Virus record (IMG/VR): IMGVR_UViG_3300046691_000407
Origin: an uncultured virus (IMG/VR IMGVR_UViG_3300046691_000407)
Lineage: Duplodnaviria > Heunggongvirae > Uroviricota > Caudoviricetes
Length of the DNA stretch: 54,212 bases
Strand: one strand, 5' to 3'
In this document: positions 9,638 through 49,701 of the stretch, piece after piece
How positions within the stretch are numbered: position 1 is the stretch's first letter
Layout of the letters: the number at the start of each line of letters is the position of its first letter
Notes under the pieces: model-generated
Databases searched by the model: none
What the model saw: only the letters and a program-made list of their open reading frames with translations
Told to the model about the DNA's origin: nothing
Position numbers and translations under genes: made by a program

Positions 9638-10327
9638 TCAGAGATCGCAGGATTCAGAAGGGCCTGAAGCCAGTTCGCTGTCAAAGGTGTCATTCTCAGG
9701 GTTGCTCAACCCGATCGTCTTCAGCACGTTCCTTCGCTCCATGAGCTGCGGAATGATGACGTGGCGCATCCAGTTGCGCTCGTGGACGGTGTCGGCGTTG
9801 CTCTCGTCCTCGATCCATTCGACCCGGCGGTTCCGCGCCTGGCGCTCGATCTCGTCCTTCGGCACCAAGAGGAACGGCCGATAGCGGTCGCCGCTGCGCT
9901 TGTTCATCCGCAGGCTGTCGTGCGGGTAGCCGCGCATGAGCCGCATCAGGACAGTCTCCACCTGGTCGTTAGCGTGATGGGCGGTCACCAAGAGCTCTTC
10001 TTCGTGCTTCACGGAGGCGAAGAACGCATACCGCTGGTCGCGCGCCTCGGCCTCGAGCGACTTCGCCGCCCTCATCGCTTCGGGGTCGCCCTCTGCCGAA
10101 AGAAATGCGATGCCGTTGCGGCCGCACCATTCGCGCGCGAGCTGCTCCTCGTTGCCCGCCGTCGGCCTCAGACGATGGTTGAAATGGGCCACGCGGAAGG
10201 GCTGCCTGCAGTTCCTGTTGAAGAAGTCGAGCATGAACATCGAATCCAAGCCACCGCTCACGCAGAGCAGGTATCGCTCCGATGTCGTGTTGATCTCGTC
10301 GATGATATCGCGCCAGCGAACCTGCAT
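9638..10327 (-). CDS. tilS: tRNA(Ile)-lysidine synthetase TilS-like, catalytic PP-loop domain only
   Basis: SGGLDS PP-loop, HFNHRLR, EAEARDQRY, TAHHANDQVETVLMRLMRG, RPFL, EDESN, RNWMRH. Confidence 0.85.
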   Translation of the reverse strand: MQVRWRDIIDEINTTSERYLLCVSGGLDSMFMLDFFNRNCRQPFRVAHFNHRLRPTAGNEEQLAREWCGRNGIAFLSAEGDPEAMRAAKSLEAEARDQRYAFFASVKHEEELLVTAHHANDQVETVLMRLMRGYPHDSLRMNKRSGDRYRPFLLVPKDEIERQARNRRVEWIEDESNADTVHERNWMRHVIIPQLMERRNVLKTIGLSNPENDTFDSELASGPSESCDL

Positions 10328-10543
10328 GTGTCCTTGCTCCACTTGTCAGGGGATAAGAGCACCTTTGCGCGCAACTTTCCAGCCTAATTGTTGACAATGG
10401 AATTGGCCGGGTCTAGCGACACCCAGAAGCAAGGGGCATTATGTCCTGAAAAACGAACGGAGTTTCAATGGGCAGACGCGAGATCGGGTGCAGGCGCGCG
10501 CTGAGTTTAACGTTGGGAGCGTGTGATGGATGCCGTGGCATCC

Positions 10544-13572: not shown

Positions 13573-13720
13573 GGAATTTCCTTGCTGCAAATCCAATTGG
13601 AATGATCCTCTCCCTTCGAGACGCTGACAAGCAGCAAGCGGGACAGATGCCACTCTCCCGGCAAGGATTCAGTTGTGCCATGTCGCGGCCGTGGCGAACA
13701 TCGGGCTGGAGGTACAAGGC

Positions 13721-14188
13721 ATGGACACGATCAGGCTCTATCACGGCACAACGAAGCGCTTCTCAGAATTCGCCACGAAGGGCGTGACGCCAAGGTTCGA
13801 CACCGGCGCTTACATCCTCGGGCACTATCTCACGGAATCGGAAAGCCATGTCATGGCCTACGCCCGCGGCCGCTGGGGCAAGGTCTATATCGTCGATGCG
13901 TCGTTCGAGGCCATGAAGACGGTGCCGCCGAGGCCTTCCGGCATCAGCGAGATCGACCGCATGCAGCTCGATTTCACTGAAGAGGACTTCGCCGAATACC
14001 GCAACGATCTCGTCGCCCAGGGCTATGACAGCGTCTGCTTCGAGACGGTCGACGGCTTCAACGAGTATGTCTTCCTCCATGCCGACCAGTCCGCATCGTG
14101 GAGTGCGTTCCAGCCGAGGAGTTCAAGGGGATCGAGCAGCCCGCGCTTGCGCTGTAAGACGGCATCGTACCGCAGCGATCCAAGCTAG
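13721..14188 (+). CDS. ADP-ribosyltransferase-like (ART-PolyVal type) protein with probable frameshift near 14090
   Basis: LYHGTTKRFSEF..GHYLT..AYA..GYDSV..EYVF. The alternative frame continues RIVECVPAEEFKGIEQPALAL to a stop at 14157. Confidence 0.6.
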   Translation: MDTIRLYHGTTKRFSEFATKGVTPRFDTGAYILGHYLTESESHVMAYARGRWGKVYIVDASFEAMKTVPPRPSGISEIDRMQLDFTEEDFAEYRNDLVAQGYDSVCFETVDGFNEYVFLHADQSASWSAFQPRSSRGSSSPRLRCKTASYRSDPS

Positions 14189-21181: not shown

Positions 21182-21211
21182 TTGACGCGCCTTTGCATTC
21201 TGCAATACCTT
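21182..21211 (+). promoter_or_regulatory. Promoter of RNA cassette 1 with TTGCA-N3-TGCAA palindrome
   Basis: TTGACG at 21182; TTGCATTCTGCAA at 21193-21205. Confidence 0.55.
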
Positions 21212-21217
21212 TGATCC

Positions 21218-21288
21218 AGACGAGATCAAACGCGTTGGGTTTTCACTGCAAATGAAACCGCCCCATCGCACTCCATCAGCACTCGTCT
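21218..21288 (+). ncRNA. Short Y-like hairpin RNA with anticodon-like loop CUGCAAA
   Basis: AGACGAG/CTCGTCT, GCGTTGGG/CCCATCGC and GGTTTTCA/TGAAACC helices; homologous to 22141-22213. Confidence 0.65.
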
Positions 21289-21440
21289 GTCTTCTCTGGC
21301 GATGTCGAAATCCTTGATTTTGGTCATCCACCGTGGGTCGCAGGTTCGATCCCTGCCCGGAGTCCGCTCCGGTAGCTCAGCGGGAGAGCAACAGTCCAAA
21401 GCCGATTTCAGCCTCAGCATTCGGCATCGCCAGAGAAGAC
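21289..21440 (+). ncRNA. yrlA: YrlA-like Y RNA (circularly permuted tRNA mimic), copy 1
   Basis: Terminal stem GTCTTCTCTGGCGATGTCGAA/TTCGGCATCGCCAGAGAAGAC encloses T-arm GCAGG-TTCGATC-CCTGC, acceptor stem closed by a TCCG loop, then D-arm TAGCTCAGCGGGAGAGC; near a Ro60 gene. Confidence 0.85.
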
Positions 21441-21506
21441 CCGACCTTTGTCGGTTGCGTCCGGGACATCGATCCTTGACCATCATCATTGATGGAGGGC
21501 GCATAC

Positions 21507-22076
21507 ATGACGAGACTTAGGGAACTTCTCAGCGACAAGCCGTTGCTGGCGGCATACGTGGCCGTCGCCGTTACCGCCATGGCCACCGGAACGCTCGCCT
21601 TCGACAAGATAGACAAGGTCGCCCGCATGATGGACGGCGAGCTCGTCACCGTATCCCAGGCGGTCAAGATGGATGGCCGCGCCAACGAGGCCGTCAAGAC
21701 GATGACGAGCTTGGTGGTGGGCTTGACGGATGCCGGGCAGATCAACGATGTGGCCGCCCTAAGGGACCGGCTACGGGAGGTCAGCAGCGAGCTTCACAGC
21801 ATCCATTACCCGCTGCCAGAAGGAAAGTCCGGCCGCTCTCCCGATCCTCTGGCGGTCTACGCCGACCAGCTCCAGGCGAAGGGCATCCAACTGCAGAACG
21901 CAATCTGGGCGCTGAATGTATGGGAGTTTTTGGCGGCGGACGGAAAACTTGACGCCGCTGAGAAGCAGCGGGACAAGCTCCTCGACATCCTCACAAAGGT
22001 GGATGGAGCCGCTGCTTCGGGTCGTGCGAGCGAAACCTTCACTTGGCAGGAAGTAGCCTTTTCTCCGAATCCTTGA
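21507..22076 (+). CDS. Hypothetical protein with N-terminal TM/signal segment, between the two RNA cassettes
   Basis: GGAGG RBS; LLAAYVAVAVTAMATGTLAF. Confidence 0.7.
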   Translation: MTRLRELLSDKPLLAAYVAVAVTAMATGTLAFDKIDKVARMMDGELVTVSQAVKMDGRANEAVKTMTSLVVGLTDAGQINDVAALRDRLREVSSELHSIHYPLPEGKSGRSPDPLAVYADQLQAKGIQLQNAIWALNVWEFLAADGKLDAAEKQRDKLLDILTKVDGAAASGRASETFTWQEVAFSPNP

Positions 22077-22095
22077 AAAACTTTCCGCCGGCCTC

Positions 22096-22124
22096 TTGCG
22101 CGACATTGCAAAATGCAAAATCAT
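22096..22124 (+). promoter_or_regulatory. Promoter of RNA cassette 2/rsr with TTGCA-N3-TGCAA palindrome
   Basis: TTGCGC at 22096; TTGCAAAATGCAA at 22106-22118. Confidence 0.5.
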
Positions 22125-22140
22125 AAGACTGTAATTGATT

Positions 22141-22213
22141 GAGACGAACTCCCTGGCGTTGGGTCATCACTTGAAATGATACCATCCCATCGCCGCCATC
22201 CAGCGTTCGTTTC
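22141..22213 (+). ncRNA. Short Y-like hairpin RNA with anticodon-like loop CUUGAAA
   Basis: GAGACGAAC/GTTCGTTTC, GGCGTTGGG/CCCATCGCC and GGTCATCA/TGATACC helices. Confidence 0.65.
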
Positions 22214-22381
22214 GTCAAGTTACGGAGACCGCGAAATCCTCGGATTCGGTTATCGCAATGGAAGCCGGCATACATGGGTTCGATTCCCATCCGCCCCGCC
22301 ATCTATGGGGAGGTAGCCAAGTGGTAAGGCACCGAAAATACCGATCCATCCCCGCCTTCGCGGCCTCCGTAAACTGACGAA
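22211..22381 (+). ncRNA. yrlA: YrlA-like Y RNA (circularly permuted tRNA mimic), copy 2
   Basis: Terminal stem TTCGTCAAGTTACGGAGACCGCGAA/TTCGCGGCCTCCGTAAACTGACGAA; T-arm ATGGG-TTCGATT-CCCAT, CCGCCCC-G-CCA, 5-nt linker, GGGGAGG, D-arm TAGCCAAGTGGTAAGGC; about 30 nt upstream of Ro60. Confidence 0.88.
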
Positions 22382-22412
22382 CGACGCGCACAATCCGAAA
22401 GGAATGGGACCC

Positions 22413-23993
22413 ATGTCCTACGCATCGCTCGTCGCCTCCACTCGTGTCTCCCAGAGGGAGCAGCTCAACGACCGCCAGATCCTCAACAACGCAGGCGGCT
22501 ACGTCTACGCGCTCGACATGTGGGCGCGTCTCGACCGCTTCCTGATCCTCGGATCCGACGCTCCGACCTACTACCAGTCGGCCCGGAAGCTGACCCGCGA
22601 AAACGCCCGGGTCGTCGAGGAGTGCTGGAAGGCCGACCACACCCGCACGGCGGAGCGCATCTGCGAGATCTCGGTCTCCGGGCGCGCGCCGAAGAACTCC
22701 CCGGCGATCTTCGCCATCGCGCTTGGCGCGACGCTCGATTCCGTCGACGTCCGACGCTCGGCGCTGGTGTCCGTGTCCCGCGTCTGCCGCACTGCGTCGC
22801 ATCTCTTCGAGTTCGCCTCGCTGCTCGACGCGCTCGGCCGGGGCTGGGGCCGCGCGGTCGCGCGCACGTTCGACAAGTGGTATGCGGACCGTTCGGTCGG
22901 CACGCTCGCGAACCAGATGACCAAGTACCGCAGCAGGAATGGCTACACGCATGGACGAGTCCTTCAGCGCGTGCATCCAAAGGTGGCCGAATCCGACCAG
23001 GAGCGTGTGGCGCTGATGCGCTGGGCGTGCGGCGGACGCATCGAGAACTACCCGCTGCCAGACAAGCTCGTCGGCCATCTCGCGGCAATGAAGACGGAGA
23101 AGGCTTCCGAGCTGGTGCCGCTCATCGAGCGGCATTCGCTCACGTGGGAGCAGGTTCCGACCTGGGCGCTGAAGGATGCGAAGGTCTGGGAGGCTCTCCT
23201 GCCGAACCTCGGCATGACGGCGCTGCTCAGGAATCTTTCGACTCTGACGGAGGTCGGCGTGGTAAAGCCGCTCGGCGGCCGCACGTCGGACATCGCCGAC
23301 CGCCTGTGCGACGCGGCTCTCGTCCGCGAGGAGAAGCTGCATCCGTATGCGATCCTCAACGCTCTGGCAGTCTACCGCCGCGGCAAGTCCGTGCTCGGTG
23401 ACCGCACGTGGAATCCGGTGTCGGCGATCAGCGACGCCCTCGACGAGGCATTCTACCTCGCCTTTGGCAACGTGGAGCCGACGGGCAAGCGCCATCTCCT
23501 TGCGCTCGACGTGTCGGGTTCGATGGGCACCAGCCTCATCGGCGGCATCCTGTCGGCACGCGAAGCTTCGGCGGCCATGTCGATGGTCACGGCGCGGTCG
23601 GAGAAGCATCACCACTTCGTGGGCTTCTCCTCCTCGATCGTCGATCTCAAGATCGGCGCGAGGATGAGCCTGCCGGAGGTCGAGCGCGTCATCTCGGATA
23701 TTCCGTTTCGCGGAACCGACTGCGCCGCGCCGATGCTGCATGCGATGAACAACGGGCTCGAGGTCGACGTCTTCGTCGTCTACACGGACAACGAGACCTG
23801 GCAGGGGCGCATCCACGCGTCCGAGGCGCTGAAGATGTACCGCAAGGCGACCGGTATTCCGGCGAAGCTCGTCGTGGTCGGCATGACGGCGACGAGCTGC
23901 TCGATCGCCGATCCGAACGATCCGGGGATGCTCGACATCGTCGGCTTCGATTCCAACGCGGTCTCCCTCATGGCGGATTTCGTCCGCTCATGA
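22413..23993 (+). CDS. rsr: Ro60/TROVE domain RNA-binding protein with vWA domain (Rsr)
   Basis: NNAGGY, RFLILGS..TYY, HLFEF, GWGR, KYRSRNGYTH, MTALLRNL, LHP, MIDAS DVSGSM, GTDC, YTDNETW, GMLDIVGFDS. Confidence 0.96.
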   Translation: MSYASLVASTRVSQREQLNDRQILNNAGGYVYALDMWARLDRFLILGSDAPTYYQSARKLTRENARVVEECWKADHTRTAERICEISVSGRAPKNSPAIFAIALGATLDSVDVRRSALVSVSRVCRTASHLFEFASLLDALGRGWGRAVARTFDKWYADRSVGTLANQMTKYRSRNGYTHGRVLQRVHPKVAESDQERVALMRWACGGRIENYPLPDKLVGHLAAMKTEKASELVPLIERHSLTWEQVPTWALKDAKVWEALLPNLGMTALLRNLSTLTEVGVVKPLGGRTSDIADRLCDAALVREEKLHPYAILNALAVYRRGKSVLGDRTWNPVSAISDALDEAFYLAFGNVEPTGKRHLLALDVSGSMGTSLIGGILSAREASAAMSMVTARSEKHHHFVGFSSSIVDLKIGARMSLPEVERVISDIPFRGTDCAAPMLHAMNNGLEVDVFVVYTDNETWQGRIHASEALKMYRKATGIPAKLVVVGMTATSCSIADPNDPGMLDIVGFDSNAVSLMADFVRS

Positions 23994-24523
23994 ACGCAGG
24001 GGATCTCGAGAGCGCCAGTCAGCTACTCTTTCCCGAACAGGGAAAGAACGCGCTGGCGGCCGCCCTCGGGATCGATCCCTCGACGCTCTGGCGATATGCG
24101 CAGCGTGGAAGGATCCCCGGCCCGGTAAGCGCCGCCGTCGCGTCATGGCTGGTGCTGAAGCGAGATTTCGACCTCGATCCTCCCGCAGAACCATGCTCGA
24201 CACGCGACATCGAGGAACTGGCGGAAATGGCGGATCCCGGCATCCGCAGGCGAAGCGGCCTTCTCGGCATCGAGGCGGCCGCTTCCGTTGTTTTCGGAGA
24301 AGGGTGGAAGGGCAAGCTGGCTTCGGCCCTCGGGGTCGACTACAGCACCATCTGGCGGCAGATCACCTCGGAGAACATCCAGGGGCCAGTCATGGCCGCC
24401 ATCAGGGCATGGACGGTTCTGACGCGGCTCGGCGGCACCCTCCCCGGCAATCCGGCGGATGCTCCCCGTAGCACCCGCCGGCAGACGCCGAAATACGCCA
24501 GGTTGCTGCTCGAGGACGACTAG
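23990..24523 (+). CDS. Protein with two tandem HTH-like repeats
   Basis: ATGA overlap with rsr; LAAALGIDPSTLWR..GPVSAAV and LASALGVDYSTIWR..GPVMAAI. Confidence 0.8.
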   Translation: MNAGDLESASQLLFPEQGKNALAAALGIDPSTLWRYAQRGRIPGPVSAAVASWLVLKRDFDLDPPAEPCSTRDIEELAEMADPGIRRRSGLLGIEAAASVVFGEGWKGKLASALGVDYSTIWRQITSENIQGPVMAAIRAWTVLTRLGGTLPGNPADAPRSTRRQTPKYARLLLEDD

Positions 24524-29548: not shown

Positions 29549-29865
29549 GGCATCATTGGCTGCGGCCGGCGGATCGGGAGACACAGAAGTGCCTCCCCTG
29601 GATGGCGATCTATAAGGTCCGTTACATCGAATCCTGCGAATTCCAAAGAAATTTTACTCGCGATAACTCATAAAATGAAACCTTCGGATCTGATGGGGCA
29701 ACCGTCGCGCCTTTCTATCCTGGTCTAAGGATTCGACCCGGATTGAAACAGCTTCTGTATGGATTCATGATACGGGACTCGCATTCTCGGCTTTGGGGGC
29801 CAGCAGAAATTATGAAACTGAAAAAGAACAACAGCGTAGCCATGTCCGAATCATTCCGCAGGACA

Positions 29866-32800
29866 GTGATTTCGAAGCATTTCTCCGCGCGGAAGGTATT
29901 GTCTTCAATCGTCGCAGCGACACTGGTGGCGACCTCTGCCGTTCCCGCATCCGCCGACAGCTTCTTCTTCCGCTACAAGCAGCCGGCCTCGTGGGCGCCG
30001 GGATCCGATCCTGAAATCCCCACCGATCCGCAGCTCGGGGTCGGCAACGACATCACGATCTTCTTCACGGGAGCCATCGGCATCCCGTTCTCCAAGCTGA
30101 TCCCGGTCAAGACCAAGGACGTTGCCGAGTGGAGGTTCCAGAGCGGAACCTTGCAGGATGGCTTGGGACTCGATCCCTCGACAGGCATCGTATCTGGCAC
30201 GCCGGGCGGAAAGACCACCCAGAAGAAGGCGGTGCTGGTCGGATACGACGTCGGCGGCCATCTGATCGCGCGCGCCGCGATCACCTCGCGCTTCCACAAT
30301 CCCGCGGGCCAGGCGACCGACTTCACCTTCTACGGCCACACGAACAAGTACATGTACCGCCAGATCCCGGCGACCGTTCCGATCGCCAAGTGGGAGAGCA
30401 TCGGCGACCTTCCGGATGACTTCCACACCGAGACACGCTACTTCGCAGGAACGCCGTCCCAGGAATACACGACGGGTGTCGGCTTCATCGGCTACGACTA
30501 CATGGACAAGGAGGTCGCGTTCACCTACGGCGACCTGATCGTTCAGGACACACCGGTCATCGAGCACATCGACGACCGGATCCGCCACCCGAGCAAAAAC
30601 TTCGTCGTCACACCGACCGTCCAGTACAGGATCGGTGAGCTGAAGTACCGTCTCGTGGCCCTCGACGGGAAGCCCGCGAGCACGGGATTCAACACGAAGA
30701 CCGGCCGCCTCTCGACGAGAATTCCGACCTTCAACACCTCGATGCGCTTCAAGATCGAGGTGACCGATGTGGATGGAGTTGTCGGATCCTCCAACGTCTT
30801 CAAGCTGACGACTGCGTCGCCTGACGTTGACATGGCGAACATGCGCAATCAGACCGGAACGGTCAACCAGGCATACTCCCTCCAGATCACGGGCAAGGAT
30901 CTGTCTGGCGACGTCAACTGGAAGGTTCTCGCGGGACAGCTTCCCGATGGCCTGTCGCTGGATGCCGAGACGGGCGAAATTTCCGGAATTCCGACCCGTG
31001 TCGAGACCAAGACAGGGATCGTCATTGGCGCCGTGACTTCTGATGGCGGAAGCGGCCAGACCCCGGCTTTCGACTTCACCATCTATCCTGAAGAGATCAG
31101 CGTGGCGTTCCAGCCCGTCGAGACGCGTGTCGGTCGGCCGTTCGTAACCGCAGGTCCGACAATGGGAACCGGCATCAAGTCTCCATTCTCGTTCGACCTC
31201 GCAGCGGGCGCCGTCCTCGATGACGCAATCTCCGTCGACTACGACACCGTCGTCGTATCCGGAACCGCCGAGACCGCCGGCGACTACTCGGTTCCGTTCG
31301 ACTTCACCAACGGCGACGGCCGTCAGAAGACCTTCGTCCAGCCGATCACGATCCACGACCTGCTGGCGCTCGAATACGAACCAGAGATCACGGTCTACCG
31401 CCGCACTCCTGTATCCGTGCAGCCGTCGTCGGTGGCGGGTGTGATCGGCGTGGGCGAGTTCAAGCTCACTTCCGGCACGCTTCCCAAGGGACTCAGCATT
31501 GATCCGTCCTCCGGCGACATTGTCGGAACCCCCGAAGAAATGGGCAGCGCAGTCGACCTTACCGTCACCCTGTCCGACGAGAGCGGCGAAACCATCGCCT
31601 CGAACGATTTCGAGATCGAGGTTCAGGACCGTCCTCCGGTCGAGGTCGCCGCAGCCGCGGTGCAGGTCGAGCGCTTTGTCGACAACGCCGTCACCACGAC
31701 GACTTCACAGAACGTCTATGATGGCGTGACCTACGAGCTGGTAGCAGGAACGCTGCCGGATGGTCTGACCTTCGATGAGGATGGTGTCATCCGAGGCAAC
31801 ACCCAGGAACTGGTCGGCGAGTACGGCGGCCTGCAGGTGCAGGCGACCGACGGTGAAGGATACGTTGGTCTAAGCCCGGTCTTCTCCGTCACCGTCATCG
31901 AGCCGAAGAACCTCGCTCCGCTCAACTTGGCGAACGGCACCTCCGATGTTGACGCGACATGGGCGGAAGACGTTCCGTTCGCCTTCGACCTCCCAGTGCC
32001 CGCCAACGCGTTTGGAACGGTTGCCTATGACTTCCAGGCTCTCCCCGATGGCATCGCCGTTGTCGGCGGCCAGCTCGTCGGAACGGTTGCGGAATCCGGC
32101 ATCTATGTCTTCCCGTTCACGCTGATCGATGACGCGCGCCGCACGCTCTCCGGCAACTTCACCTTGACGATCCTCGAGCCTATGAGCGCAACCCTTTCGG
32201 GGCGTGGAAAGATGGGAGACGAGGAGACTGATGATGTCTCGTTCGAGCTTCCGCGCGGCGGCGACACCATCATCTCGCCTGTCATCAAGGACGCGATCGG
32301 AAACGTCACCTACACCTACCAGGGCACGCTGCCGGACGGCCTCTCCTACGCCGACGGCAAGATCACCGGAAAGCCGACAACACAGGATCAAACGGGCGAG
32401 TTCACGCTCGTTCTGACTGACGAGGCGGGTTCGACGGTCAACCTTCATGCGAAGGTCCTGATCGGCGCCCGCGTTCCGCTGACACTCAGCTACGCCGTGC
32501 CGTCGCCTGCAGGATTCGTGGGCATCAGCATATCGCCGATCAAGCCCTCGGTCGTCGACTCCATCGGAGCAGTGACCTACACACAGCAGGGCGCGCTGCC
32601 TCCGGGCATTTCCTTCGACGGGAACACGGGCTACTTCTACGGTGTGCCGACGGAAGCCAACTGGTTCCAGGGCATCGAGGTGACGGCGACAGACTCCGAG
32701 GGTTCGAGCTTTGCCGGAACCTACGGGCCGGTCGCCATGGGCATCTCGATGAAGGGCAATCCGGTCGTGCCCGGCACGACCACCTTCACTGTCCGCGCAG

Positions 32801-35800
32801 GGGAGCCCTTCGTGCAGACGCTCGATGTGACCAACGCGATCAAGCCGGTCGTGTTCGGCACGCCGTCGGGCGATCCCCTGCCATACGGACTTACGCTCGG
32901 CCAGTTCGACGGCAAGATATCCGGAATGTTCCCGGCGGCGGGCAAGTATGTAGCCGGTGCCGTCACGGCGATCGACTCCTTCAGCCGCGAGAAGACGACC
33001 AACGTCAAGTTCGTCGCCGTCGGCCCTCTCGACATCGCAGCCCCGGCCACGACCACGTTCAACCAGTACTCGAGCGTTTCGGCGCAAAGCGTTGCAACGA
33101 ATGTGATTGGAACAGCGAAGTACGAGCTGGCTACCGGAACACTGCCCTCGTTCCTCTCCCTCAACCCGAACACCGGGTATATCGCGGGGCCCGCAGACAC
33201 GAAGGGTGTCTGGGGCGGTCTCACGATAAAGGTGACGGACTCCACCGGATCCTCCGCTTCGACCGACGCTTTCTCCATCGCCATCGGCGACAGGCTTCCG
33301 CTCGAGCTGAACACCGCCGACACCTACAACCTCGTCGCCAACAAGAACTACAAGCTGGCCATGCCTGTCGCCAACGCCGTTGGCGCGGTCACCTTCATCC
33401 AGACTGGAGCGCTGCCGGAAGGCATCTCCTTCGACGCAAAGGTGGGGCGGTTCTCCGGCGTTGCGAAGGTGATCGGATCGTTCCCCGTGAGCGTCACAGT
33501 GACCGACAGCGTGGGTGCGAGCGTCACGAAGGCCTTCTCGCTGGTGATCGACACGAACGGATATCCGATCAACCTGACCGTTACCGACTTTGTCACGAAG
33601 GTCGGCGAGCCAATCTCCACGAAGCTTCCGGTCTATTCGAACCATGTCGGAACCGTGCAGTTCTGGGCCGACGAGACGCTCGCGGACTACGGCCTGACGA
33701 TCGATCCCGACACGGGCGTGATCTCGGGCACCGCGACCCAGCTCATGGACTTCACACCGAACGTCAACATCTCCGACGCATCACTGCGCGTGACCTCCAA
33801 GCCCATCAGCATCAAGGTGGTTCCGGATCTGGTCGCGAATGTTCCGGCACGCATCGACCTTCCCGTGAACAAGCGGGTCTATCCCTACATGTATGTGTCC
33901 GCGGACAACGGCATCGGTGCGCTGGACTGGTCGATCGAGGGCACGCTGCCAAAGGGGCTTTCGTTCTCGACCAGGCTTCGCCGCTTTGCCGGAACGCCGA
34001 CCGAAATGGGAACCTTCCCGATCAAGCTGACCGTCGCCGAGCGTGATGGGTTCAAGCAGTCTTCGACGGTCGCCGTCGAGGTGGTTGTTGTCAGCGATGG
34101 AGTTGCGCCGACAGTGCGTGTCACGCCATCGACCGTCGGATACTACACGCATCAGAACTCCACCATCACCCCGGTGTATCAGAACGCCAAGACGGGGGAT
34201 GTGCTGGATCTTGCTCCGGACTCCGCGCCACTTCCTCCCGGCGTCACGTTCAGGAAGAACAGCTCCGGGGCCGACGTCCTCTACCACGCGGTCGGAGCAA
34301 CCACCGACGCGGGCATCTATCCCGGAATCAAGGTCAGGGTGACTTCCTCCGACGGTCTCTATGGCGATAGCGAGCCGTTCACGCTCGTCCTGAAGACGGC
34401 GTTCTCATACGAATACCGGAAGCTGGATGTTCGTGCTTACGACCCGGTATCCGTTCCAGCGCCCGCTCCAATCTCGGGCAAGCCTGTGGGTAACGTGACC
34501 TACTCGTTCGCCAGTGACTACTCCGGAGGAACGCTGAAAGTCGACCCTGTAACGGGCCTGCTCACGGGATATGTGACGAAGTCGGGATCGGTCTCGGTCC
34601 GCGTCACAGATACATACAACGGAGCCACTCTGCGATCCGTAACTTACGTCGTGACGTTCACGGCCAAGGTTCTCTCCGTGAAGACCCCTGCCCAGCAGGT
34701 GACGTTCACCGGCATCAACTACCCCAGCTACGTGACCACCATGACCAACGGAAGCCAGAACGCGGTCATGTCGCTCGGAGAACTCGTTCCTCCCGGCCTG
34801 AGCGTCGATCCGGTCACGGGAACGATCTCCGGCATCGCGACCACTGCCGGTGTGTACCCGACGACACTCGTCTACACGGATCCGAACCAGACGCTCGTCA
34901 CGCCATTCACGGCGACCGTCGAGCAGTCGGCCCCGGCAGGCAAGGGATACAAGTTCCTAAAGGTGGCGGTGACAAGCAGGAACGACCATATCAGCAATCT
35001 CTCAATCAGGAGTGCTTCCGGAAGCGACATCATGCACATGGTGTCGAAGGGCGCCGGAAACCTGTCCGTTGGCGTCTACAACCAGCTTGTAGGGCCGCAC
35101 AACGCCATTACGTTCCCGACGGGTGGCTTCCAGGAGTTCGAGCTGCCCACATATGTTGACAAGGGATCGATCGAGGCAAGAGGGCACGGATCCGCGACCG
35201 TCGTCTATTCGGCGTCCGTCGATGGCCAGACATGGGTAGAGATCGGCACCCAGGTCAACAGCGGCGCGCCCAAGGCATCCTTCCAGTTCAAGGAAGCCAC
35301 GGACCTCTTCGCCTTCAACGCCAACGCCATCACTCCGGCTCCGGCACAGGTTCCATACAGCTTCGATCTCAAGACGCTGGTCGATGCTTCGAGCCTCGAC
35401 GGCATCTCGGCATCGAACCTGGCGTGGACATGGTCGGTCGATCCCAACCGGGACACGTCCACCACCATGGCGACCCTGCCCGCAGGCATCTCCATAAGCG
35501 GTTCCACGCTGACAGGAACTCCGACAGTCGAGGGCACCTACGCCGTCGTTCTGAAGGGTGCCTACGGCGGCCGCTCGGTGTCGAAGGCGTTCCAGATCGT
35601 GGTTCCGGCTCCGGGACCTCTCTTCGTCTTCAACAGCACGGCCCTTCCACAGGGGATGGCCCAGTTCGCCTACAGCTTTGACATGAGGACGCTCGTCGAC
35701 GCCTCCACCCTGCAGGGCATCACGACCTCGAGCTTGAGCTGGACATGGGCGGCCGATCCCAACCGGAACACGTCCACGACCATGGCTGACCTGCCTGCAG

Positions 35801-37305
35801 GTCTCGCCATCAGCGGGGCCACGCTGCGGGGGACGCCCACGACCGAAGGCACCTATGCCGTCGTTCTGACGGGAACCTACGGCGGCCGCTCGGTATCCAA
35901 GTCGTTCCAGCTCGTAGTGACACCTCTCGTGGCATCGATGTCGCTGCAGGGTGCGACGCTGCAGTCTGGAGAACGCTGGGTGACACCGTTCAATGTGGAC
36001 ATGTTCCCCTACCTGACGGCTCCCGGAGTGACGCTTTCCGAAGTGAAGTGGACAGTCGTCACCTCCGGTGTCGTGGCACAGTCCGGCGAAGCGGTCGCGC
36101 TCCCGGCGGAACTTGCGCTTGGCAACACGACCGGAGCTATCACCGGAACGTCGAGCAGCGTCGGCAAGTGGAGATTTGCGATCAAGGCCACCTGGAAGAC
36201 CCTGTCTGCCCAGGCGGAGTATGTGATCGAGATCACCGGCGAACCAACCAACTACAAGTTCACAAAGCTCTCGGCCGGAGACAACTACACCTGCGGCATC
36301 ACCACTTCCGGTAAAGTCGCATGCTGGGGCAATGGTGGCAGCAACCGCCTTGGATACAACAATGCGACGAACTCGGCCGTCCCGGTGGATGTGGCCGGCA
36401 TTGCCAAGGACGCCTCCATGATCGCGCTTGGGACAGGAAGCGTGACCACATGCGCCACCACGTCGACGGGCGCGATGATGTGTTGGGGCGGAACCGGTGA
36501 AATTACCGGGATGTCAGGCCCCTACGCCCGCCTCTCTCCGAACTATGCTTCCGGTGTCACCGATATCGCGATGAAGTCGCAGCACGCCTGCTACATCACG
36601 TCTGGAGCGGTCAAGTGCCAGGGATGGAACGGCGACAGCATGGCGGTCGGCCTGTCTGCGTCCAACTACTGGGTGTCTTCGCCCAATACTCCATCCGGCC
36701 TCACCACCGGCTACAAGGAGGCGGCGGTTGGTACGGACCATAGCTGCGCATTGAGCACTGCTGGCGCGGTCAAGTGCTGGGGCTTGAGAACCAATGGCAG
36801 GCTGGGCAACGGCTCGATCGCGACCACGGCCGTCTCGGCCCCGGTCAACGTGACCGGGCTGACCTCTGGCGTGAAGGCGATCGCTGCGGGGGCCGACTTC
36901 ACGTGCGCCATCACTTCCGCAAGCGGGGTCAAGTGCTGGGGCAACAACAACAACGGCCAGATCGGCGACGGCAAGACCACGCAGGCCCCCGCCGCCGTCG
37001 ACGTCAATGGCCTGACCTCCAACGTCAAGGAGATCGCGGCCGGTACCAACCACGCATGCGCGCTCACCAATTCCGGTGCCGTCAAGTGCTGGGGCAACAA
37101 CGGGTATGGGAAGCTCGGCAACGGCTTGACCCTGACCTCGAGCGCTCCGGTCGATGTGGTCGGCCTTGACTCCGGGGTGGCCTCGATCACCGCTGGGGCA
37201 AACCACACCTGCGCACTGATGACCAGCGGCGACTACAAATGCTGGGGTCTGAACACCAGCGGCCAGCTCGGCGATGGCACGCTCGTCAACCGACCTACAC
37301 CGTAA
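29866..37305 (+). CDS. Giant secreted putative-Ig (He_PIG) repeat protein with C-terminal RCC1/BLIP-II-like repeats
   Basis: 2520-codon ORF from 29743, likely start GTG 29866 or ATG 29842. Signal peptide ends VPASA then DSFFFRY; many LPxGLSxDxxTGxISGTP repeats; C-terminal AGxxHTCA..VKCWGxNxxGQLGDG repeats. Confidence 0.93.
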   Translation: MISKHFSARKVLSSIVAATLVATSAVPASADSFFFRYKQPASWAPGSDPEIPTDPQLGVGNDITIFFTGAIGIPFSKLIPVKTKDVAEWRFQSGTLQDGLGLDPSTGIVSGTPGGKTTQKKAVLVGYDVGGHLIARAAITSRFHNPAGQATDFTFYGHTNKYMYRQIPATVPIAKWESIGDLPDDFHTETRYFAGTPSQEYTTGVGFIGYDYMDKEVAFTYGDLIVQDTPVIEHIDDRIRHPSKNFVVTPTVQYRIGELKYRLVALDGKPASTGFNTKTGRLSTRIPTFNTSMRFKIEVTDVDGVVGSSNVFKLTTASPDVDMANMRNQTGTVNQAYSLQITGKDLSGDVNWKVLAGQLPDGLSLDAETGEISGIPTRVETKTGIVIGAVTSDGGSGQTPAFDFTIYPEEISVAFQPVETRVGRPFVTAGPTMGTGIKSPFSFDLAAGAVLDDAISVDYDTVVVSGTAETAGDYSVPFDFTNGDGRQKTFVQPITIHDLLALEYEPEITVYRRTPVSVQPSSVAGVIGVGEFKLTSGTLPKGLSIDPSSGDIVGTPEEMGSAVDLTVTLSDESGETIASNDFEIEVQDRPPVEVAAAAVQVERFVDNAVTTTTSQNVYDGVTYELVAGTLPDGLTFDEDGVIRGNTQELVGEYGGLQVQATDGEGYVGLSPVFSVTVIEPKNLAPLNLANGTSDVDATWAEDVPFAFDLPVPANAFGTVAYDFQALPDGIAVVGGQLVGTVAESGIYVFPFTLIDDARRTLSGNFTLTILEPMSATLSGRGKMGDEETDDVSFELPRGGDTIISPVIKDAIGNVTYTYQGTLPDGLSYADGKITGKPTTQDQTGEFTLVLTDEAGSTVNLHAKVLIGARVPLTLSYAVPSPAGFVGISISPIKPSVVDSIGAVTYTQQGALPPGISFDGNTGYFYGVPTEANWFQGIEVTATDSEGSSFAGTYGPVAMGISMKGNPVVPGTTTFTVRAGEPFVQTLDVTNAIKPVVFGTPSGDPLPYGLTLGQFDGKISGMFPAAGKYVAGAVTAIDSFSREKTTNVKFVAVGPLDIAAPATTTFNQYSSVSAQSVATNVIGTAKYELATGTLPSFLSLNPNTGYIAGPADTKGVWGGLTIKVTDSTGSSASTDAFSIAIGDRLPLELNTADTYNLVANKNYKLAMPVANAVGAVTFIQTGALPEGISFDAKVGRFSGVAKVIGSFPVSVTVTDSVGASVTKAFSLVIDTNGYPINLTVTDFVTKVGEPISTKLPVYSNHVGTVQFWADETLADYGLTIDPDTGVISGTATQLMDFTPNVNISDASLRVTSKPISIKVVPDLVANVPARIDLPVNKRVYPYMYVSADNGIGALDWSIEGTLPKGLSFSTRLRRFAGTPTEMGTFPIKLTVAERDGFKQSSTVAVEVVVVSDGVAPTVRVTPSTVGYYTHQNSTITPVYQNAKTGDVLDLAPDSAPLPPGVTFRKNSSGADVLYHAVGATTDAGIYPGIKVRVTSSDGLYGDSEPFTLVLKTAFSYEYRKLDVRAYDPVSVPAPAPISGKPVGNVTYSFASDYSGGTLKVDPVTGLLTGYVTKSGSVSVRVTDTYNGATLRSVTYVVTFTAKVLSVKTPAQQVTFTGINYPSYVTTMTNGSQNAVMSLGELVPPGLSVDPVTGTISGIATTAGVYPTTLVYTDPNQTLVTPFTATVEQSAPAGKGYKFLKVAVTSRNDHISNLSIRSASGSDIMHMVSKGAGNLSVGVYNQLVGPHNAITFPTGGFQEFELPTYVDKGSIEARGHGSATVVYSASVDGQTWVEIGTQVNSGAPKASFQFKEATDLFAFNANAITPAPAQVPYSFDLKTLVDASSLDGISASNLAWTWSVDPNRDTSTTMATLPAGISISGSTLTGTPTVEGTYAVVLKGAYGGRSVSKAFQIVVPAPGPLFVFNSTALPQGMAQFAYSFDMRTLVDASTLQGITTSSLSWTWAADPNRNTSTTMADLPAGLAISGATLRGTPTTEGTYAVVLTGTYGGRSVSKSFQLVVTPLVASMSLQGATLQSGERWVTPFNVDMFPYLTAPGVTLSEVKWTVVTSGVVAQSGEAVALPAELALGNTTGAITGTSSSVGKWRFAIKATWKTLSAQAEYVIEITGEPTNYKFTKLSAGDNYTCGITTSGKVACWGNGGSNRLGYNNATNSAVPVDVAGIAKDASMIALGTGSVTTCATTSTGAMMCWGGTGEITGMSGPYARLSPNYASGVTDIAMKSQHACYITSGAVKCQGWNGDSMAVGLSASNYWVSSPNTPSGLTTGYKEAAVGTDHSCALSTAGAVKCWGLRTNGRLGNGSIATTAVSAPVNVTGLTSGVKAIAAGADFTCAITSASGVKCWGNNNNGQIGDGKTTQAPAAVDVNGLTSNVKEIAAGTNHACALTNSGAVKCWGNNGYGKLGNGLTLTSSAPVDVVGLDSGVASITAGANHTCALMTSGDYKCWGLNTSGQLGDGTLVNRPTP
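35305..35919 (+). repeat. Tandem duplication of a 105-aa Ig module (315-nt period)
   Basis: YSFD..TLVDAS..WTW..DPNRxTSTTMAxLPAG..EGTYAVVLxGxYGGRSVSKxFQ occurs twice. Confidence 0.85.
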
Positions 37306-37391: not shown

Positions 37392-38177
37392 TCAGATGTG
37401 TGCGATGAGACTTCCAAGAAACGCATCCAGTGGCGCGTAGTGACGCAGAAGCACGGCAGGCGTGAGCGCTGCGAGGTAGGCATCCGGTTCGAGGCGCTCC
37501 CAGTCGAGCCTCTTTCCTTCCCTCCTGAGCAACTCGGTGAAGACCGTGTTGAGACTGCGGCCGTTGCCGTCATAGAAGGGATGGTGGAAGGCCAGCTCGC
37601 CGTAGACGTATCCGAGGTTCGCCGCAACGAATCCGGGAGTAGCCGCTTCTGCCAAGACCGCTTCTGCCTCCTTCTTGACGAGATGCGGAAGATTGAACCG
37701 GACGGAGCCCCGCCCCACGGGGTGCTCGCGGATGCGGCCCGCCCATGTCGGAAACACAGCTCCGAAAAGCATGCCATGAACGCCAAGCCAGGCATCGAGA
37801 GTGACTGTCGGAACAGCCCGCAGGTGGATGATCGCAGGAGCCATTCCACAGCTTGTTGTGATGAATTCCAGCTTCTCGAGCTTGGACGGATCGGCTGTTG
37901 CCAGGCAGTTGCGCAGGATGCCGCGCGTCGCCCTGTCCCCGAAGGGATCCCAGAGCCGCCGCTGCTCGACTGCCGCGGCTGAGGTGTCATGGTGGACGGC
38001 GGCGAGATGCAGTGCCTCCTCGACTGGCATAGCTCCTGAAATGGCCTGCCGGGCGATGGTCTCGATCGCTTCGTCAGGTTCGAAGAATTCGATGCGGTTG
38101 AACTGCCGGGCGAGTGCGCTTGCCTCCGCCGAGATGCTTCCAGATGTCGTCAAGACTCGGTCTCCGATTGACCCCAA
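37392..38177 (-). CDS. Fic domain protein
   Basis: HPFYDGNGRS motif; LFGAVFPTWAGRIR. Confidence 0.85.
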   Translation of the reverse strand: MGSIGDRVLTTSGSISAEASALARQFNRIEFFEPDEAIETIARQAISGAMPVEEALHLAAVHHDTSAAAVEQRRLWDPFGDRATRGILRNCLATADPSKLEKLEFITTSCGMAPAIIHLRAVPTVTLDAWLGVHGMLFGAVFPTWAGRIREHPVGRGSVRFNLPHLVKKEAEAVLAEAATPGFVAANLGYVYGELAFHHPFYDGNGRSLNTVFTELLRREGKRLDWERLEPDAYLAALTPAVLLRHYAPLDAFLGSLIAHI

Positions 38178-38326: not shown

Positions 38327-39124
38327 TCAGGCGACCCGCAGGAGTTCATCCATTCTGTCGAGCAGCGATCCCCTGCCCCGGTCGTGGATGACGGGCTCTA
38401 TGGTCGAGACCGAGCCATCGCCGCTGGTCTGCAGGAATTCCACCTTCATCCGGTCGCGGTCGATGCACAGGAATGTCAGCCTGCCGCTCTCGTAGGCGCC
38501 GGTGTCGAGAGATATCCGGTTCTCGGTCACGACGGGAAGATCCCCCATCACGGAATGGCCGTGGATGACGGGCGGCATCCTCTCATCAATCCGGTCGAGA
38601 AAGCCGTCTGAAATCCACATGAGGTCGTGCGGATCCTGCTGGTCGAGGGGGAGATAGCCGTTGATGCCGGCATGGCATGCGACGAACGCCCCGTCCCGCT
38701 CCATGAAGCTTGCATTCCTCAGAAGCTCGACGTGATGGGGAAAGTCCTTCTTAATGGTGCGGATGAAGGGCTTCAGCTCGCCTCCGGGGTCGTAGGAGGC
38801 GCAGGTGTCGAAGCCGCCAGCCTGCTCGTACCAGAAGTCTGTTTTCCGCCGCGACGAGGTGCCGTCGAGTATCTCCAGCAGGAGATGGTCGTGGTTTCCC
38901 ATGATCGCGACCGAGCGCGGCCATTTCCGGATCGTCTTGCAGACGGCATCGAGAACGTCCTTCGTGCCGATGCCGCGGTCGATCAGATCGCCGAGGAAGA
39001 CCACGCGGGGCGATATCTCATCGTCGGCGCTCATCTCCTCGATCCTGCCAAGGACGCTCGCCAGGAGGCGATCCTGTCCGTGGACATCGCCGATGAAGAA
39101 GGACTTTCCGGTCATGTCAGGCAA
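38327..39124 (-). CDS. Metallophosphoesterase (PPP-type Ser/Thr phosphatase-like)
   Basis: GDVHG, GDLIDRG, GNHD, HAG, HGHS, DTGA. Confidence 0.92.
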   Translation of the reverse strand: MPDMTGKSFFIGDVHGQDRLLASVLGRIEEMSADDEISPRVVFLGDLIDRGIGTKDVLDAVCKTIRKWPRSVAIMGNHDHLLLEILDGTSSRRKTDFWYEQAGGFDTCASYDPGGELKPFIRTIKKDFPHHVELLRNASFMERDGAFVACHAGINGYLPLDQQDPHDLMWISDGFLDRIDERMPPVIHGHSVMGDLPVVTENRISLDTGAYESGRLTFLCIDRDRMKVEFLQTSGDGSVSTIEPVIHDRGRGSLLDRMDELLRVA

Positions 39125-40253
39125 CCTTCAGAAGTGCGCTCTTGTTCTGGATTCCGTTCCTCAAGCCGAAAGACTGCCAGTTCAACCGATGAAGTCCAAG
39201 CTGCTTTTCAGCCAGGGTGGAGACCTTCGCTCCCTCGAAGGCGACGACGGCCGGAAGTGCATCCGTTTCGGTGGGCATCGCCAGCGTGATGTGACAGTGC
39301 CGGGCCAGCCGGCAGACTGACAGGTGGTGTGGCTCCCTGTCCTCCTCGCGAACTCGCAGACCCGAAGTGTCGCCGATAACGATCGTCGACAACGGCCATG
39401 CGGAGGAGCCGGGGTGGTGTGTCGGAGCATCGGACCCCAGGTTGGACATGTAGTAGCGCTGCATGGAATGATACAGATCGGCGGCAACGAGGGTGTCGGC
39501 TTCGCTTCCCGGCTTCGTTCGCACGATGCAGATGAGCTGACGCTTCAGAACGTGCTGGAAGTTGATCCCCCGGGCGCTGCAGCGGGCCTTGCCGACGGAT
39601 TCGACGCTGTCTCTGATGGCGTTCAGCAGCGTGCGGTGCTTGTGGCCGCGCGGCGTGGGGGAGCTGACCAGCAGGCGGTGCAGTTCCACCGTCTCAGCCA
39701 TATGGCGCATGCCCTCCCGTTCCGAAAGTTCGATGATCTTGTCATGGATATGTTCATCGAGCGCGGCTGCGAGAACATCGGCCGAAGAGAACGCTTCTCC
39801 GTCGGAGTCTCGGTTTCCGGCGAGGAAGAAGCCTGCGGCATCCATGAGGGCGTAGGCGGTCTCACGGTAGCGATCCGATCGAAGGCGCTCGGGATGGCGG
39901 TGAAGATGGATTGAGCTGAAGCGGGTTGGTTGCGGGTATGAGATGGCCCCAGGGTCGTAGGAATGCCACGTGGGAGCATCCGCCGCATCGCGGATATCGA
40001 CGATATGCCCTGTGCGCCCGTGCTCGTCGGCCAGGGTCCGGATGCGCTGAATGTCATCGTCGGTGAGACGCGGGTCGTGAACGATCAGAGCCTGCCCCTC
40101 CCGGATGGCACGCTCGATGAGAGCGGCTACGGCCGCCCGCTGCTTCGGACGCGCGGAGTTCGGCAGGTGAAGTCCGGTGAGCGAATGGCCCGACACCTTT
40201 GCAGGACGCCCGAAGACGGGTGTGTGACCGAAAGGAACCTTGAAATCGTACAT
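39117..40253 (-). CDS. Degenerate DotL/IcmO/TraD coupling-protein-like protein
   Basis: AIREGQALIVHDPR, INFQHVLKRQLICIV, STIVIGD, RLARHCHITL are collinear with DotL motifs as recalled; Walker A is absent. Confidence 0.4.
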   Translation of the reverse strand: MYDFKVPFGHTPVFGRPAKVSGHSLTGLHLPNSARPKQRAAVAALIERAIREGQALIVHDPRLTDDDIQRIRTLADEHGRTGHIVDIRDAADAPTWHSYDPGAISYPQPTRFSSIHLHRHPERLRSDRYRETAYALMDAAGFFLAGNRDSDGEAFSSADVLAAALDEHIHDKIIELSEREGMRHMAETVELHRLLVSSPTPRGHKHRTLLNAIRDSVESVGKARCSARGINFQHVLKRQLICIVRTKPGSEADTLVAADLYHSMQRYYMSNLGSDAPTHHPGSSAWPLSTIVIGDTSGLRVREEDREPHHLSVCRLARHCHITLAMPTETDALPAVVAFEGAKVSTLAEKQLGLHRLNWQSFGLRNGIQNKSALLKVA

Positions 40254-40317
40254 GGGATGCTCCTGCTGCTGTTCCCTTGAGTTTCGCACCGCCGGAGGTT
40301 GTCCGACAAGGTCGATT

Positions 40318-41088
40318 TCAGTCTGCGATGAACTCGCACTGGATCGGTGTATCTGCCGCCTCGACGTTCCGATAGTTCTGAAAGAAGCAGGGATCGCTCA
40401 AGCCGTAGGGATTGATCTCGATCAGAAGATAGTCCTGACCCCGGTCGAATACGTCGAAGACCACCGTGTCCAAATGAAGGACAGGAAGCAGCTTCTCGTT
40501 GAACCATGCGTCGATGCGGGCGCGCACGGCCGCGCCGCCGTCCTCGAACGGCTCCACAGGGTTCTGGTAGTCATAGCGCGTCACTGCGATCAGGCGGCGA
40601 TCCTTGACGAAGCAGCGGTATTCGCGGCTCTTGTCGACGTGAACGTGCTCGCGCAGGCAGATATAGGCGGGCTGTTCGGGGAGATAGTTGAACTCCAGCA
40701 GGTCATCGAGAACGCGCATGGATGAGGCGAGGATGCTCAGTGCCTCCTTGCCCGAACAGGTGATCGGGGCTTCGAACGGCCACGGCCAGTCCTTCGGCGA
40801 ACGGCTGTTGAGACGGATGAACTTGCGGTCCCATCCCATGGCATCGTCCAGCTCGGCCGCGAGCGCCGTCATGATGGGGCCGGGCTTGGCGCCGTCATGG
40901 AGCGAATAGAACTCCTTGGCCAGACCATCCGGAACCCGAATGAGCTGCGTCGGCATCGACAGCGCCGCCAGACCTTCGGGCCAGTTGTCGATCAGCGTGG
41001 GGCCGACATTCTTCAGCCAGGCCAGTGATGCCTCGCGATGCTGCTCCGGGGTCGGCATCTTGGGTTCTGGAATTTTCAGGAAGGGCAT
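40318..41088 (-). CDS. CDC123/D123-like (R2K) ATP-grasp protein
   Basis: FIRLNSRSPKD, EYRCFV..LIAVTRY, VVFDV, LIEINPYG..DPCFF. Confidence 0.8.
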   Translation of the reverse strand: MPFLKIPEPKMPTPEQHREASLAWLKNVGPTLIDNWPEGLAALSMPTQLIRVPDGLAKEFYSLHDGAKPGPIMTALAAELDDAMGWDRKFIRLNSRSPKDWPWPFEAPITCSGKEALSILASSMRVLDDLLEFNYLPEQPAYICLREHVHVDKSREYRCFVKDRRLIAVTRYDYQNPVEPFEDGGAAVRARIDAWFNEKLLPVLHLDTVVFDVFDRGQDYLLIEINPYGLSDPCFFQNYRNVEAADTPIQCEFIAD

Positions 41089-49230: not shown

Positions 49231-49701
49231 TCAGTCCCTGCGCTTGTCGAGGCATTCCCCCTGCGTGGATATGGCATTGACGACCACCAGTTTGCCCTCG
49301 GCGTCGGCGACGTTCATCGTGACGGCCAGACACTGGCGGACGTTGAGCTTGCCGCTGAAGCTGATCTCGGCTGGAAACGCGACCGTCCACTTGCCGTTGG
49401 CCGAACCCTTGACCGTGGAGTCTCCACGGGTGACGGCTGTCTTCAGGCCGTTGACCTTCACCATGTCGTAGTCGCCGGACGACCTCAGGGATCCGATGTA
49501 GCTCTCGTGCTTCTCGTCGCTTGCAAACAGGGAGCGAACCTCGCCGAGCTGCTGGTCGATGGTCGCCCCGTCAAGCGTATAGAGGGTGCTGTAGGCATCG
49601 CGTGCAAACACGTCGACGGCCACGTTGTCGAAGCTTGCCGCGGCGTTAGCCGCCGTCGCGGCGACAATGCCTGCGATGAGCGAAAGTACGAACGATTTCA
49701 T
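49231..49701 (-). CDS. DotI/IcmL/TraM-like type IVB secretion component with signal peptide
   Basis: LYTLD..DQQL..RSLF..SYIGSLRSSG.YDMVK..L...WTVAFPAEISF resembles the DotI periplasmic domain. Confidence 0.6.
   Translation of the reverse strand: MKSFVLSLIAGIVAATAANAAASFDNVAVDVFARDAYSTLYTLDGATIDQQLGEVRSLFASDEKHESYIGSLRSSGDYDMVKVNGLKTAVTRGDSTVKGSANGKWTVAFPAEISFSGKLNVRQCLAVTMNVADAEGKLVVVNAISTQGECLDKRRD

Follow-up and report, generated by a model that had tools for sequence, protein, structure and literature searches.

To our knowledge, work on bacterial Ro60 proteins (Rsr) and their Y RNAs is limited to very few species, and their regulation has been worked out only in Salmonella, where it runs through RtcR and sigma-54. 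The locus considered here occupies positions 21182-24523 (+ strand) of a 54,212-nucleotide (nt) stretch of DNA from rhizosphere metagenomes, filed as an uncultured virus (IMG/VR record IMGVR_UViG_3300046691_000407) and called the window hereafter. Four candidate Y RNAs lie there upstream of an rsr gene, which is followed by an overlapping gene for a tandem helix-turn-helix (HTH) protein. This is an Rsr/Y RNA locus of a known kind, the less familiar part being its regulatory wiring, for which no published match was found. Taken as a whole, it is read as a self-contained Rsr/Y RNA module with four Y RNAs and a tandem-HTH repressor, with a probability of roughly 0.6.

In Salmonella Typhimurium, the rsr-yrlBA-rtcBA locus has, as here, a short RNA (YrlB) and a tRNA-like RNA (YrlA) on the rsr strand, and a 5' motif containing CGAA (Chen et al. 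2013, 2014; Hughes et al. 2020, PMC7790460). The window differs in that its RNAs are upstream of rsr and doubled, and in that a tandem-HTH gene and an inverted repeat stand in place of the adjacent rtcB and rtcA, the RtcR and the sigma-54 promoter that characterise the rsr-yrlBA-rtcBA operon. A search for rtcB, rtcA and rtcR covered the 54 kilobases (kb) of the window and genome G001. In the window, no RtcB, RtcA or RtcR was recognised by Pfam among 55 open reading frames (ORFs) and tblastn with RtcB of G001 gave no match, in agreement with the first-pass annotation, which had reported no rtcB nearby; in G001 itself, four genes are rtcB-like and not one is near rsr, with ~0.9 Mb between rsr and the closest of those on its contig. 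The sigma-54 consensus TGGCAC-N5-TTGC, allowing up to 2 mismatches, has no site between 20319 and 24752.

In Mycobacterium smegmatis (yrlA-yrlB-rsr), two Y RNAs are also found upstream of rsr, reported there to come from one precursor, and one of them is tRNA-like with an acceptor-like stem of ~7 bp, as in the window; the window has two such pairs against one, and the available part of that paper describes no linked HTH gene for M. smegmatis (PMC4201824). The same work counts 355 YrlAs in 254 bacteria and 22 phages, with every species that was studied having two or more Y RNAs, and in its Table S1 between two and four YrlA-type RNAs share the rsr strand at some loci, no more than 4 kb from the gene, alpha-proteobacteria and plasmids included: two upstream in Methylobacterium nodulans and M. 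radiotolerans, two downstream on a Rhizobium etli plasmid, and four in Neisseria elongata (Chen et al. 2014, PMC4201824). By that measure both long RNAs of the window would count as YrlA-type, their ends lying on the + strand at 963 nt and 25 nt upstream of where the rsr ORF starts (22404). Since such rows were already tabulated, the doubled array is not new and the four-RNA arrangement does not stand out as unusual; rsr, too, is often far from rtcB. In its available part, Table S1 lists tRNA-like hits only, without short RNAs, promoters or regulators, and its R. etli entry, with an Rsr of 518 amino acids (aa), has the RNAs downstream where the window has them upstream (PMC4201824). A further likeness, by analogy, is to the RYPER assembly of Deinococcus radiodurans (Rsr, Yrn1/Yrn2 and PNPase), in which the stem of a Y RNA docks on Rsr and an outer module tethers the partner; outside the docking core the sequences are unrelated.

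Along the + strand, the locus consists of a promoter-like site, a short RNA, a long RNA, a 189-aa ORF, then a second promoter-like site, short RNA and long RNA, rsr and the HTH gene. The two paralogous units (21182-21441 and 22096-22379) each comprise a promoter-like site with an inverted repeat, a hairpin RNA of ~73 nt and an RNA of 153-167 nt, and align with a mean column identity of 75%. The short, YrlB-like RNAs (21217-21289 and 22141-22213) and the long, YrlA-like RNAs (21289-21441, 153 nt; 22213-22379, 167 nt) share a boundary nucleotide within each pair, as they do in all six cassettes of this locus and two relatives. The rsr ORF (22404-23993) encodes the TROVE domain (PF05731, 7.4e-36) followed by the Ro60-type vWA domain (vWA_Ro60, PF25045, 3.7e-66), and scores 465.5 bits with the NCBIfam Rsr model, under its equivalog cut-off of 900. 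Its first ATG, at 22404, directly abuts a ribosome-binding-like site (GAAAGGA); the proteins of the two closest relatives, which begin at the equivalent of ATG 22413 (MSY...), align from residue 4, and the true start is therefore probably ATG 22413 (526 aa). The HTH gene (23990-24523, 177 aa) overlaps the rsr stop codon with its ATG (ATGA). Thus, the first-pass annotation was right that the unit occurs twice and that rsr is followed by a coupled double-HTH gene.

Related loci were found on a contig of Pararhizobium sp. BT-229 (L001, Rsr 75% identical) and in a planctomycete metagenome-assembled genome (L002, 43%), one genome per species being scanned, while a metagenome scan gave one locus, L018 (Rsr 93%), whose 9.6 kb are almost entirely syntenic with the window (nucleotide identity 75-83%). 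Both L001 and L018 present the doubled unit, then rsr, then the tandem-HTH gene; in L001 the two units adjoin, with no 189-aa ORF between them. A tblastn search of plasmids with the HTH protein yielded two further loci, L020 on the R. leguminosarum megaplasmid pRlX5 (Rsr 61%, HTH 44%) and L019 on pANAM02 of Bosea sp. ANAM02 (Rsr 53%, HTH 38% over part). In L020 the order is short RNA, long RNA, short RNA, terminator, two promoter-like sites, a further hairpin, long RNA, rsr and HTH gene; at L020:3057-3260, a stem-plus-T-run terminator after the second short RNA, two tandem operator-like sites, a GC-rich hairpin (GACGAG/CUCGUC stem) and the last long RNA are seen in succession. L019 has one promoter and about three Y-like RNAs ahead of the TROVE gene. 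The HTH gene follows rsr in all five loci whose Rsr is at least 53% identical and in none of nine more distant ones (L002, L010-L017). Identity is 69-95% between orthologous cassettes against 52-57% between paralogous ones, which dates the duplication to before the split of the loci.

The docking anatomy is common to all four RNAs of the window. In order, they have a terminal stem with CGAR pairing to YUCG at its inner end, an internal loop, a second helix with GG(G/U) at its end, the nucleotides YWUC, and a variable module. The junction GGTYWTC, previously claimed for all four RNAs, does stand in each of them, at 21238, 21322, 22162 and 22248. On its own the 7-mer is common (48 in the window against 28.5 expected); what gives it weight is its place in the fold, which is constant in 12 of 12 RNAs of three loci; the spelling GGTTATC is found in all eight RNAs of L001 and L020. 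The core CGAR is likewise kept in 12 of 12 RNAs. In its CGAA form it overlaps the motif GNCGAAN0-1G, whose first and last G are not kept; this motif has been proposed for Rsr recognition and related to GGUCCGA, with which Xenopus Ro60 makes contact (Chen et al. 2014, PMC4201824). From the succession of CGAR/YUCG stem, second helix and GGUYWUC in their sequences, all four are read as Y RNAs, and a docking design common to all would allow Rsr to form four alternative ribonucleoproteins, distinguished by their outer module.

In the long RNAs this module resembles that of YrlA. With permissive thresholds, the Rfam YrlA model (RF02553) matches 21333-21392 (38.0 bits, E 2e-6, model positions 24-84 of 114) and 22266-22336 (21.0 bits, E 0.16, positions 23-87), in both cases over the tRNA-like module (T-arm, closed acceptor, D-arm) and leaving the YrlA stem part unmatched. 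Minimum free energies are -70.6 kcal/mol for copy 1 (z -5.7) and -66.4 kcal/mol for copy 2 (z -3.9), relative to 100 mononucleotide shuffles. A covariance model of our own, R2, was made for the long RNA, and six copies from three loci were realigned to it: over 47 pairs, 88.6% of cells are paired and 25 pairs have changed on both sides, a score reached by 0 of 500 shuffles, with 3-8 such pairs in slid registers. The long terminal stem has 23 pairs, 89.9% of cells paired and 14 of 23 changed on both sides; the T-arm is 100% paired with 3 of 5 pairs so changed, the acceptor-like stem has 4 of 5, and the D-arm is 100% paired. R2 finds exactly two places in the window (137.4 bits for copy 1, 156 bits for copy 2). 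Scores by strand (137-158 bits on + against 20-23 on -, 22.7 for copy 1) and G-U pairs settle the RNA strand as +. Applied end-to-end to YrlA-type RNAs of other rsr loci, R2 gives 53.7 bits in L012, 46 in L010, 40.4 in L017, 40.2 in L011 and 26.4 in L002.

For the short RNA, a second model (R1) was built from six copies aligned with MAFFT, with a hand-written structure. Its fold comprises a terminal stem, internal loop, second helix and small hairpin. The RNA is a hairpin interrupted by two internal loops, and the 7 nt of its apical loop (CUGCAAA or CUUGAAA) are not clearly pyrimidine-rich; R1 scores 92.3 bits on the first copy and 91.7 bits on the second. Over 20 pairs, 94.9% of cells are paired and 5 pairs have changed on both sides; no shuffle out of 500 attains this score, and slid registers give 29-48% pairing with 0-2 such pairs. 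These alignments support selection for structure in all four RNAs. The covariation across homologous loci that had been suggested as a check is thus strong, with 25 of 47 pairs in the long RNA and 5 of 20 in the short one, and the terminal stems, said to differ between the copies and still pair, do so. Only the two long RNAs are tRNA mimics, and not all four as had been stated.

The second element of the module is the HTH protein with the inverted repeat. In the first promoter-like site (21182-21211), TTGACG (21182-21187) and TACCTT (21206-21211) enclose the repeat TTGCATTCTGCAA (21193-21205) as spacer; in the second (22096-22124), TTGCAAAATGCAA (22106-22118) lies between TTGCGC (22096-22101) and AATCAT (22119-22124). 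The pattern TTGCA-N3-TGCAA occurs twice in the 54 kb against 0.02 expected, in these promoter spacers only, and likewise at two promoter sites each in L018 and L001, being invariant in six of six cassettes of three loci. In L020 there are three GCGCA-N3-TGCAA sites, and the first repeat of its HTH protein reads STRRRQ where the window has STLWRY; L019 has TTCAT-N3-ATGAA at the equivalent place, and its HTH protein is much diverged. The HTH protein is duplicated internally (43% identity between its halves over 70 aa, E 9e-16), and its AlphaFold (AF2) model (pLDDT 85.8) is all helical with two like halves. Its family comprises 19 clusters in a search of 5.8 billion proteins, with no Pfam family above cut-off. 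Judged from sequence and structural model, it is most likely a single-chain Cro-like repressor acting on a dyad operator. Autoregulated repressors of the Cro/XRE type (Aca, C-controller proteins) are alike in that a small HTH protein is encoded last in the unit and in that the inverted repeat is between -35 and -10; they are homodimers, whereas here two HTH repeats are in one chain. No publication on an HTH regulator or operator for rsr/Y RNA genes was found, a provisional result as gene-neighbourhood reviews may describe one.

Taken together, the module of this clade, patchy in Hyphomicrobiales, would be expressed from two sigma-70-type promoters giving one precursor each, in which a short Y RNA is immediately followed by a long YrlA-type one that mimics tRNA; the second of these transcripts probably continues into rsr and the overlapping tandem-HTH gene. 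The boundary nucleotide common to each pair would fit processing from one precursor, which is the origin reported for M. smegmatis YrlA and YrlB (PMC4201824). The outer modules, which are a small hairpin in the short RNAs and a tRNA-like domain, different in each copy, in the long ones, may tether or gate Rsr to partners such as PNPase for the handling of structured or damaged RNA, by analogy with Deinococcus and Salmonella. The most likely target of the tandem-HTH protein is the inverted repeat of each promoter spacer; bound there, it would repress the whole module. If it has indeed its own repressor and operator, the module offers a simple handle in culturable rhizobia (Pararhizobium sp. BT-229, R. 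leguminosarum TP16), where derepression would let the use of the four Y RNAs to Rsr be asked without attached RtcB repair genes.

Several observations weigh against this reading. The 24 runs containing the stretch are all DNA, none being on record as RNA. A consensus promoter scan finds 0 sites at the locus, so that the sigma70-like promoters proposed earlier are supported by eye and by conservation and not by that scan, and no terminator-like site follows the RNAs in the window. As regards the RNAs, GNCGAAN0-1G is only partly matched (GUCGAA-AU, CGCGAA-AU, GACGAG-AU, AACGAA-CU) and the short RNAs are weakly stable alone (z -0.7 and -2.2). The Infernal search with the YrlA model, which had also been suggested, does recover the tRNA-like module of both long RNAs, by partial matches under the 69-bit gathering score. 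The long-RNA covariation comes from an alignment fitted to R2 and from six sequences of three loci, since few related loci came from the genome and metagenome scans, and its signal is largely one old paralogue split. For the HTH protein, the HTH_17 match (E 2.5e-5, 24.9 bits) is under the Pfam cut-off of 27, Foldseek of the model against the PDB returned nothing at E <= 0.001, and the best VIA-align likenesses, to the HigA2 HTH domain (Z 6.7, root-mean-square deviation 2.3, 64 aligned) and then to MqsA, Aca1/7/10 and Cro, are at Z <= 6.7, a range common for helical models according to the tool.

The alternative that survives best, though unlikely, leaves the RNAs as they are and gives the HTH protein another task, antitoxin-like or AlpA/excisionase-like, the repeats being bound by a host factor. 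The antitoxins HigA2 and MqsA among its best fold likenesses fit this idea, as does the label 'AlpA' given by one source to a relative; what links protein and repeat is their placing and co-variation. No toxin-like partner gene is conserved; the HTH gene is strictly linked to rsr, the repeat shifts along with divergence of the HTH protein, and it is present nowhere else in the window. A repressor of the module remains the preferred role, and of the earlier claim that the locus has its own regulator, the linked HTH gene as regulator candidate stands and repression would be its probable function.

A bolder version of the repressor reading, which we consider doubtful, is an autonomous, horizontally moving Rsr/Y RNA switch, in which a two-headed repressor sits on the promoter dyad and four Ro60 particles would be released on one signal, independently of RtcR and RtcBA. 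Cited in its support is the Rfam model of nematode stem-bulge RNAs (sbRNAs; RF01656), which exceeds its own threshold (48.7 bits, gathering 38) on a Y RNA of the planctomycete genome, at L002:5786-5849, just past rsr. This match covers the lower stem and GGGUUAUC. Two Hyphomicrobiales Y RNAs (L010:1076-1172 and L011:1080-1174) reach ~31 bits with the same model. UUAUC is described as a loop motif conserved in sbRNAs and in the Y RNAs of vertebrates; bacterial Y RNAs are called not homologous to them in the available part of the source (PMC4726728). Upstream of the RNAs reported by Rfam, apparent further Y-like RNAs (GGGCCGAAG...GGTTATC) are seen in the more distant Hyphomicrobiales loci L011 (~975-1065) and L012 (~1050-1290), and rows of three Y RNAs are likely at these two loci.

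The module is patchy and accessory in its distribution. The surroundings of the RNAs-rsr-HTH unit differ at each locus, and an Rsr of this type is present in 1 of 401 sampled genomes of the family of G001, any Rsr in 9 of 401 of its order, suggesting an accessory, probably horizontally moved module. The first-pass annotation had gone further and placed it on a mobile element, with a possible part against tRNA-targeting toxins or host defences. The corresponding alternative, in which the tRNA mimics on such an element are decoys or competitive inhibitors against anticodon nucleases or tRNA-targeting toxins, without RtcB repair, is improbable. The rarity and the changing flanks just described would agree with it, and so would the relatives on two megaplasmids; both plasmids (pRlX5 and pANAM02) are, on the other hand, typed non-mobilizable. 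A competitive-inhibitor role for YrlA's tRNA-like domain was raised by Hughes et al. 2020 (PMC7790460), and TROVE proteins are sometimes found on jumbo phages according to the literature. Genes for Fic, ART-PolyVal and ADP-ribosylglycohydrolase proteins are among the neighbours of the module; no nuclease or toxin partner beside it is conserved, and PADLOC, run on 34 ORFs, recognised no defence or counter-defence system, its only hits being PDC-S04 (Fic-type) and, for the HTH protein, a weak mad1. Among the 53-55 likely ORFs of the 54 kb scanned against Pfam, PHROGs and NCBIfam, there is no integrase, transposase, replication or phage structural gene, and the sole hint of conjugation is an IcmL/DotI match at 49234-49701 (-) with E 1.1e-5 and 24.9 bits against a cut-off of 175. 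An Rsr scan of viral contigs found none, and megablast of 25 kb gave no phage match and one 134-nt plasmid match; in blastn against phages, only the rsr gene matched, in 207 records, mostly mycobacteriophages. The mobile element is therefore not borne out. Of the earlier interpretation, the Rsr/Y RNA locus, the four structured RNAs, the lack of rtcBA and RtcR in the window, the lack of a sigma-54-like site near the locus and the linked regulator candidate are retained; an unusual array and the mobile element are not.

No more probable is the possibility that the short hairpins are 5' leader or processing domains of the long precursor, or transcription-regulating structures, and not separate Rsr-bound RNAs. 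The boundary nucleotide shared with the long RNA in six of six cassettes and the weak single-sequence stability noted above speak for it. R1 matches are moreover confined to the clade: outside the six training copies, the only ones are two in L020 (52 and 47 bits), and there is none in L002 or L010-L017. Nevertheless, the short RNAs have the same CGAR/YUCG core, second helix and GGUYWUC as the long RNAs, together with compensatory changes, and in L020 one short RNA stands alone ahead of a terminator. A short second Y RNA from one precursor is also documented in M. smegmatis (PMC4201824). Short Y RNAs in their own right, as in the four-RNA module, are thus preferred.

A reading of the long RNAs as degenerate tRNA genes or as fragments of a permuted transfer-messenger RNA (tmRNA), suggested by weak Rfam matches of the copy 2 T-arm (tmRNA 20.6 bits, permuted tmRNA 16.1 bits), can be dismissed as these scores are far under the gathering score of 47, ARAGORN gives 0 tRNA and 0 tmRNA in the window, the order T-arm, closed acceptor and D-arm within a long covarying stem is the YrlA plan, and the long RNAs adjoin rsr in every locus. 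With 0 matches anywhere in the window for Rfam at gathering threshold as well, standard annotation overlooks all four RNAs.

Between the two units, the 189-aa ORF (21507-22076, +) is accessory and outside the conserved module, being present in the window and in L018 (57% identity) and absent in L001 and L020. It has one N-terminal hydrophobic segment by hydropathy, where the first-pass annotation had a membrane protein, and no match in Pfam, PHROG, NCBIfam or PADLOC to give it a family. Elsewhere in the window, the recognised genes are those of two giant immunoglobulin (Ig)-repeat proteins, a TilS N-domain, MarR, SDR, Grx4, ART-PolyVal, Fic, ADP-ribosylglycohydrolase, metallophosphatase and D123 ATP-grasp proteins. 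The giant proteins, with He_PIG Ig-like repeats, are encoded at 1-3882 (-; >1294 aa, open-ended) and 29743-37305 (+; 2520 aa, with RCC1 repeats at its end). Conflict-type enzymes are scattered, namely the ART-PolyVal ADP-ribosyltransferase (13673-14188, +), the Fic protein (37392-38177, -; PDC-S04 3.4e-26) and the ADP-ribosylglycohydrolase (41806-42624, +). At L019 (L019:7939-8355, -), an annotated aminoacyl-tRNA hydrolase, a GIY-YIG nuclease and a DUF1643 gene are found within 3.5 kb downstream of the rsr-HTH pair. In the window, a tRNA-modifying function is present in the accessory region as a 234-aa protein (9641-10342, -) that is the N-terminal PP-loop domain of TilS alone (TIGR02432, 155.5 bits, cut-off 93.6). 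Finally, the metallophosphatase, a 390-aa protein without family match and the D123-type ATP-grasp protein stand in a row at 38330-41088 (-), and the first of them faintly resembles the phosphatase portion of bacterial Pnkp as well as a phage 'RNA ligase' PHROG; these three genes could be an RNA-end-healing set.

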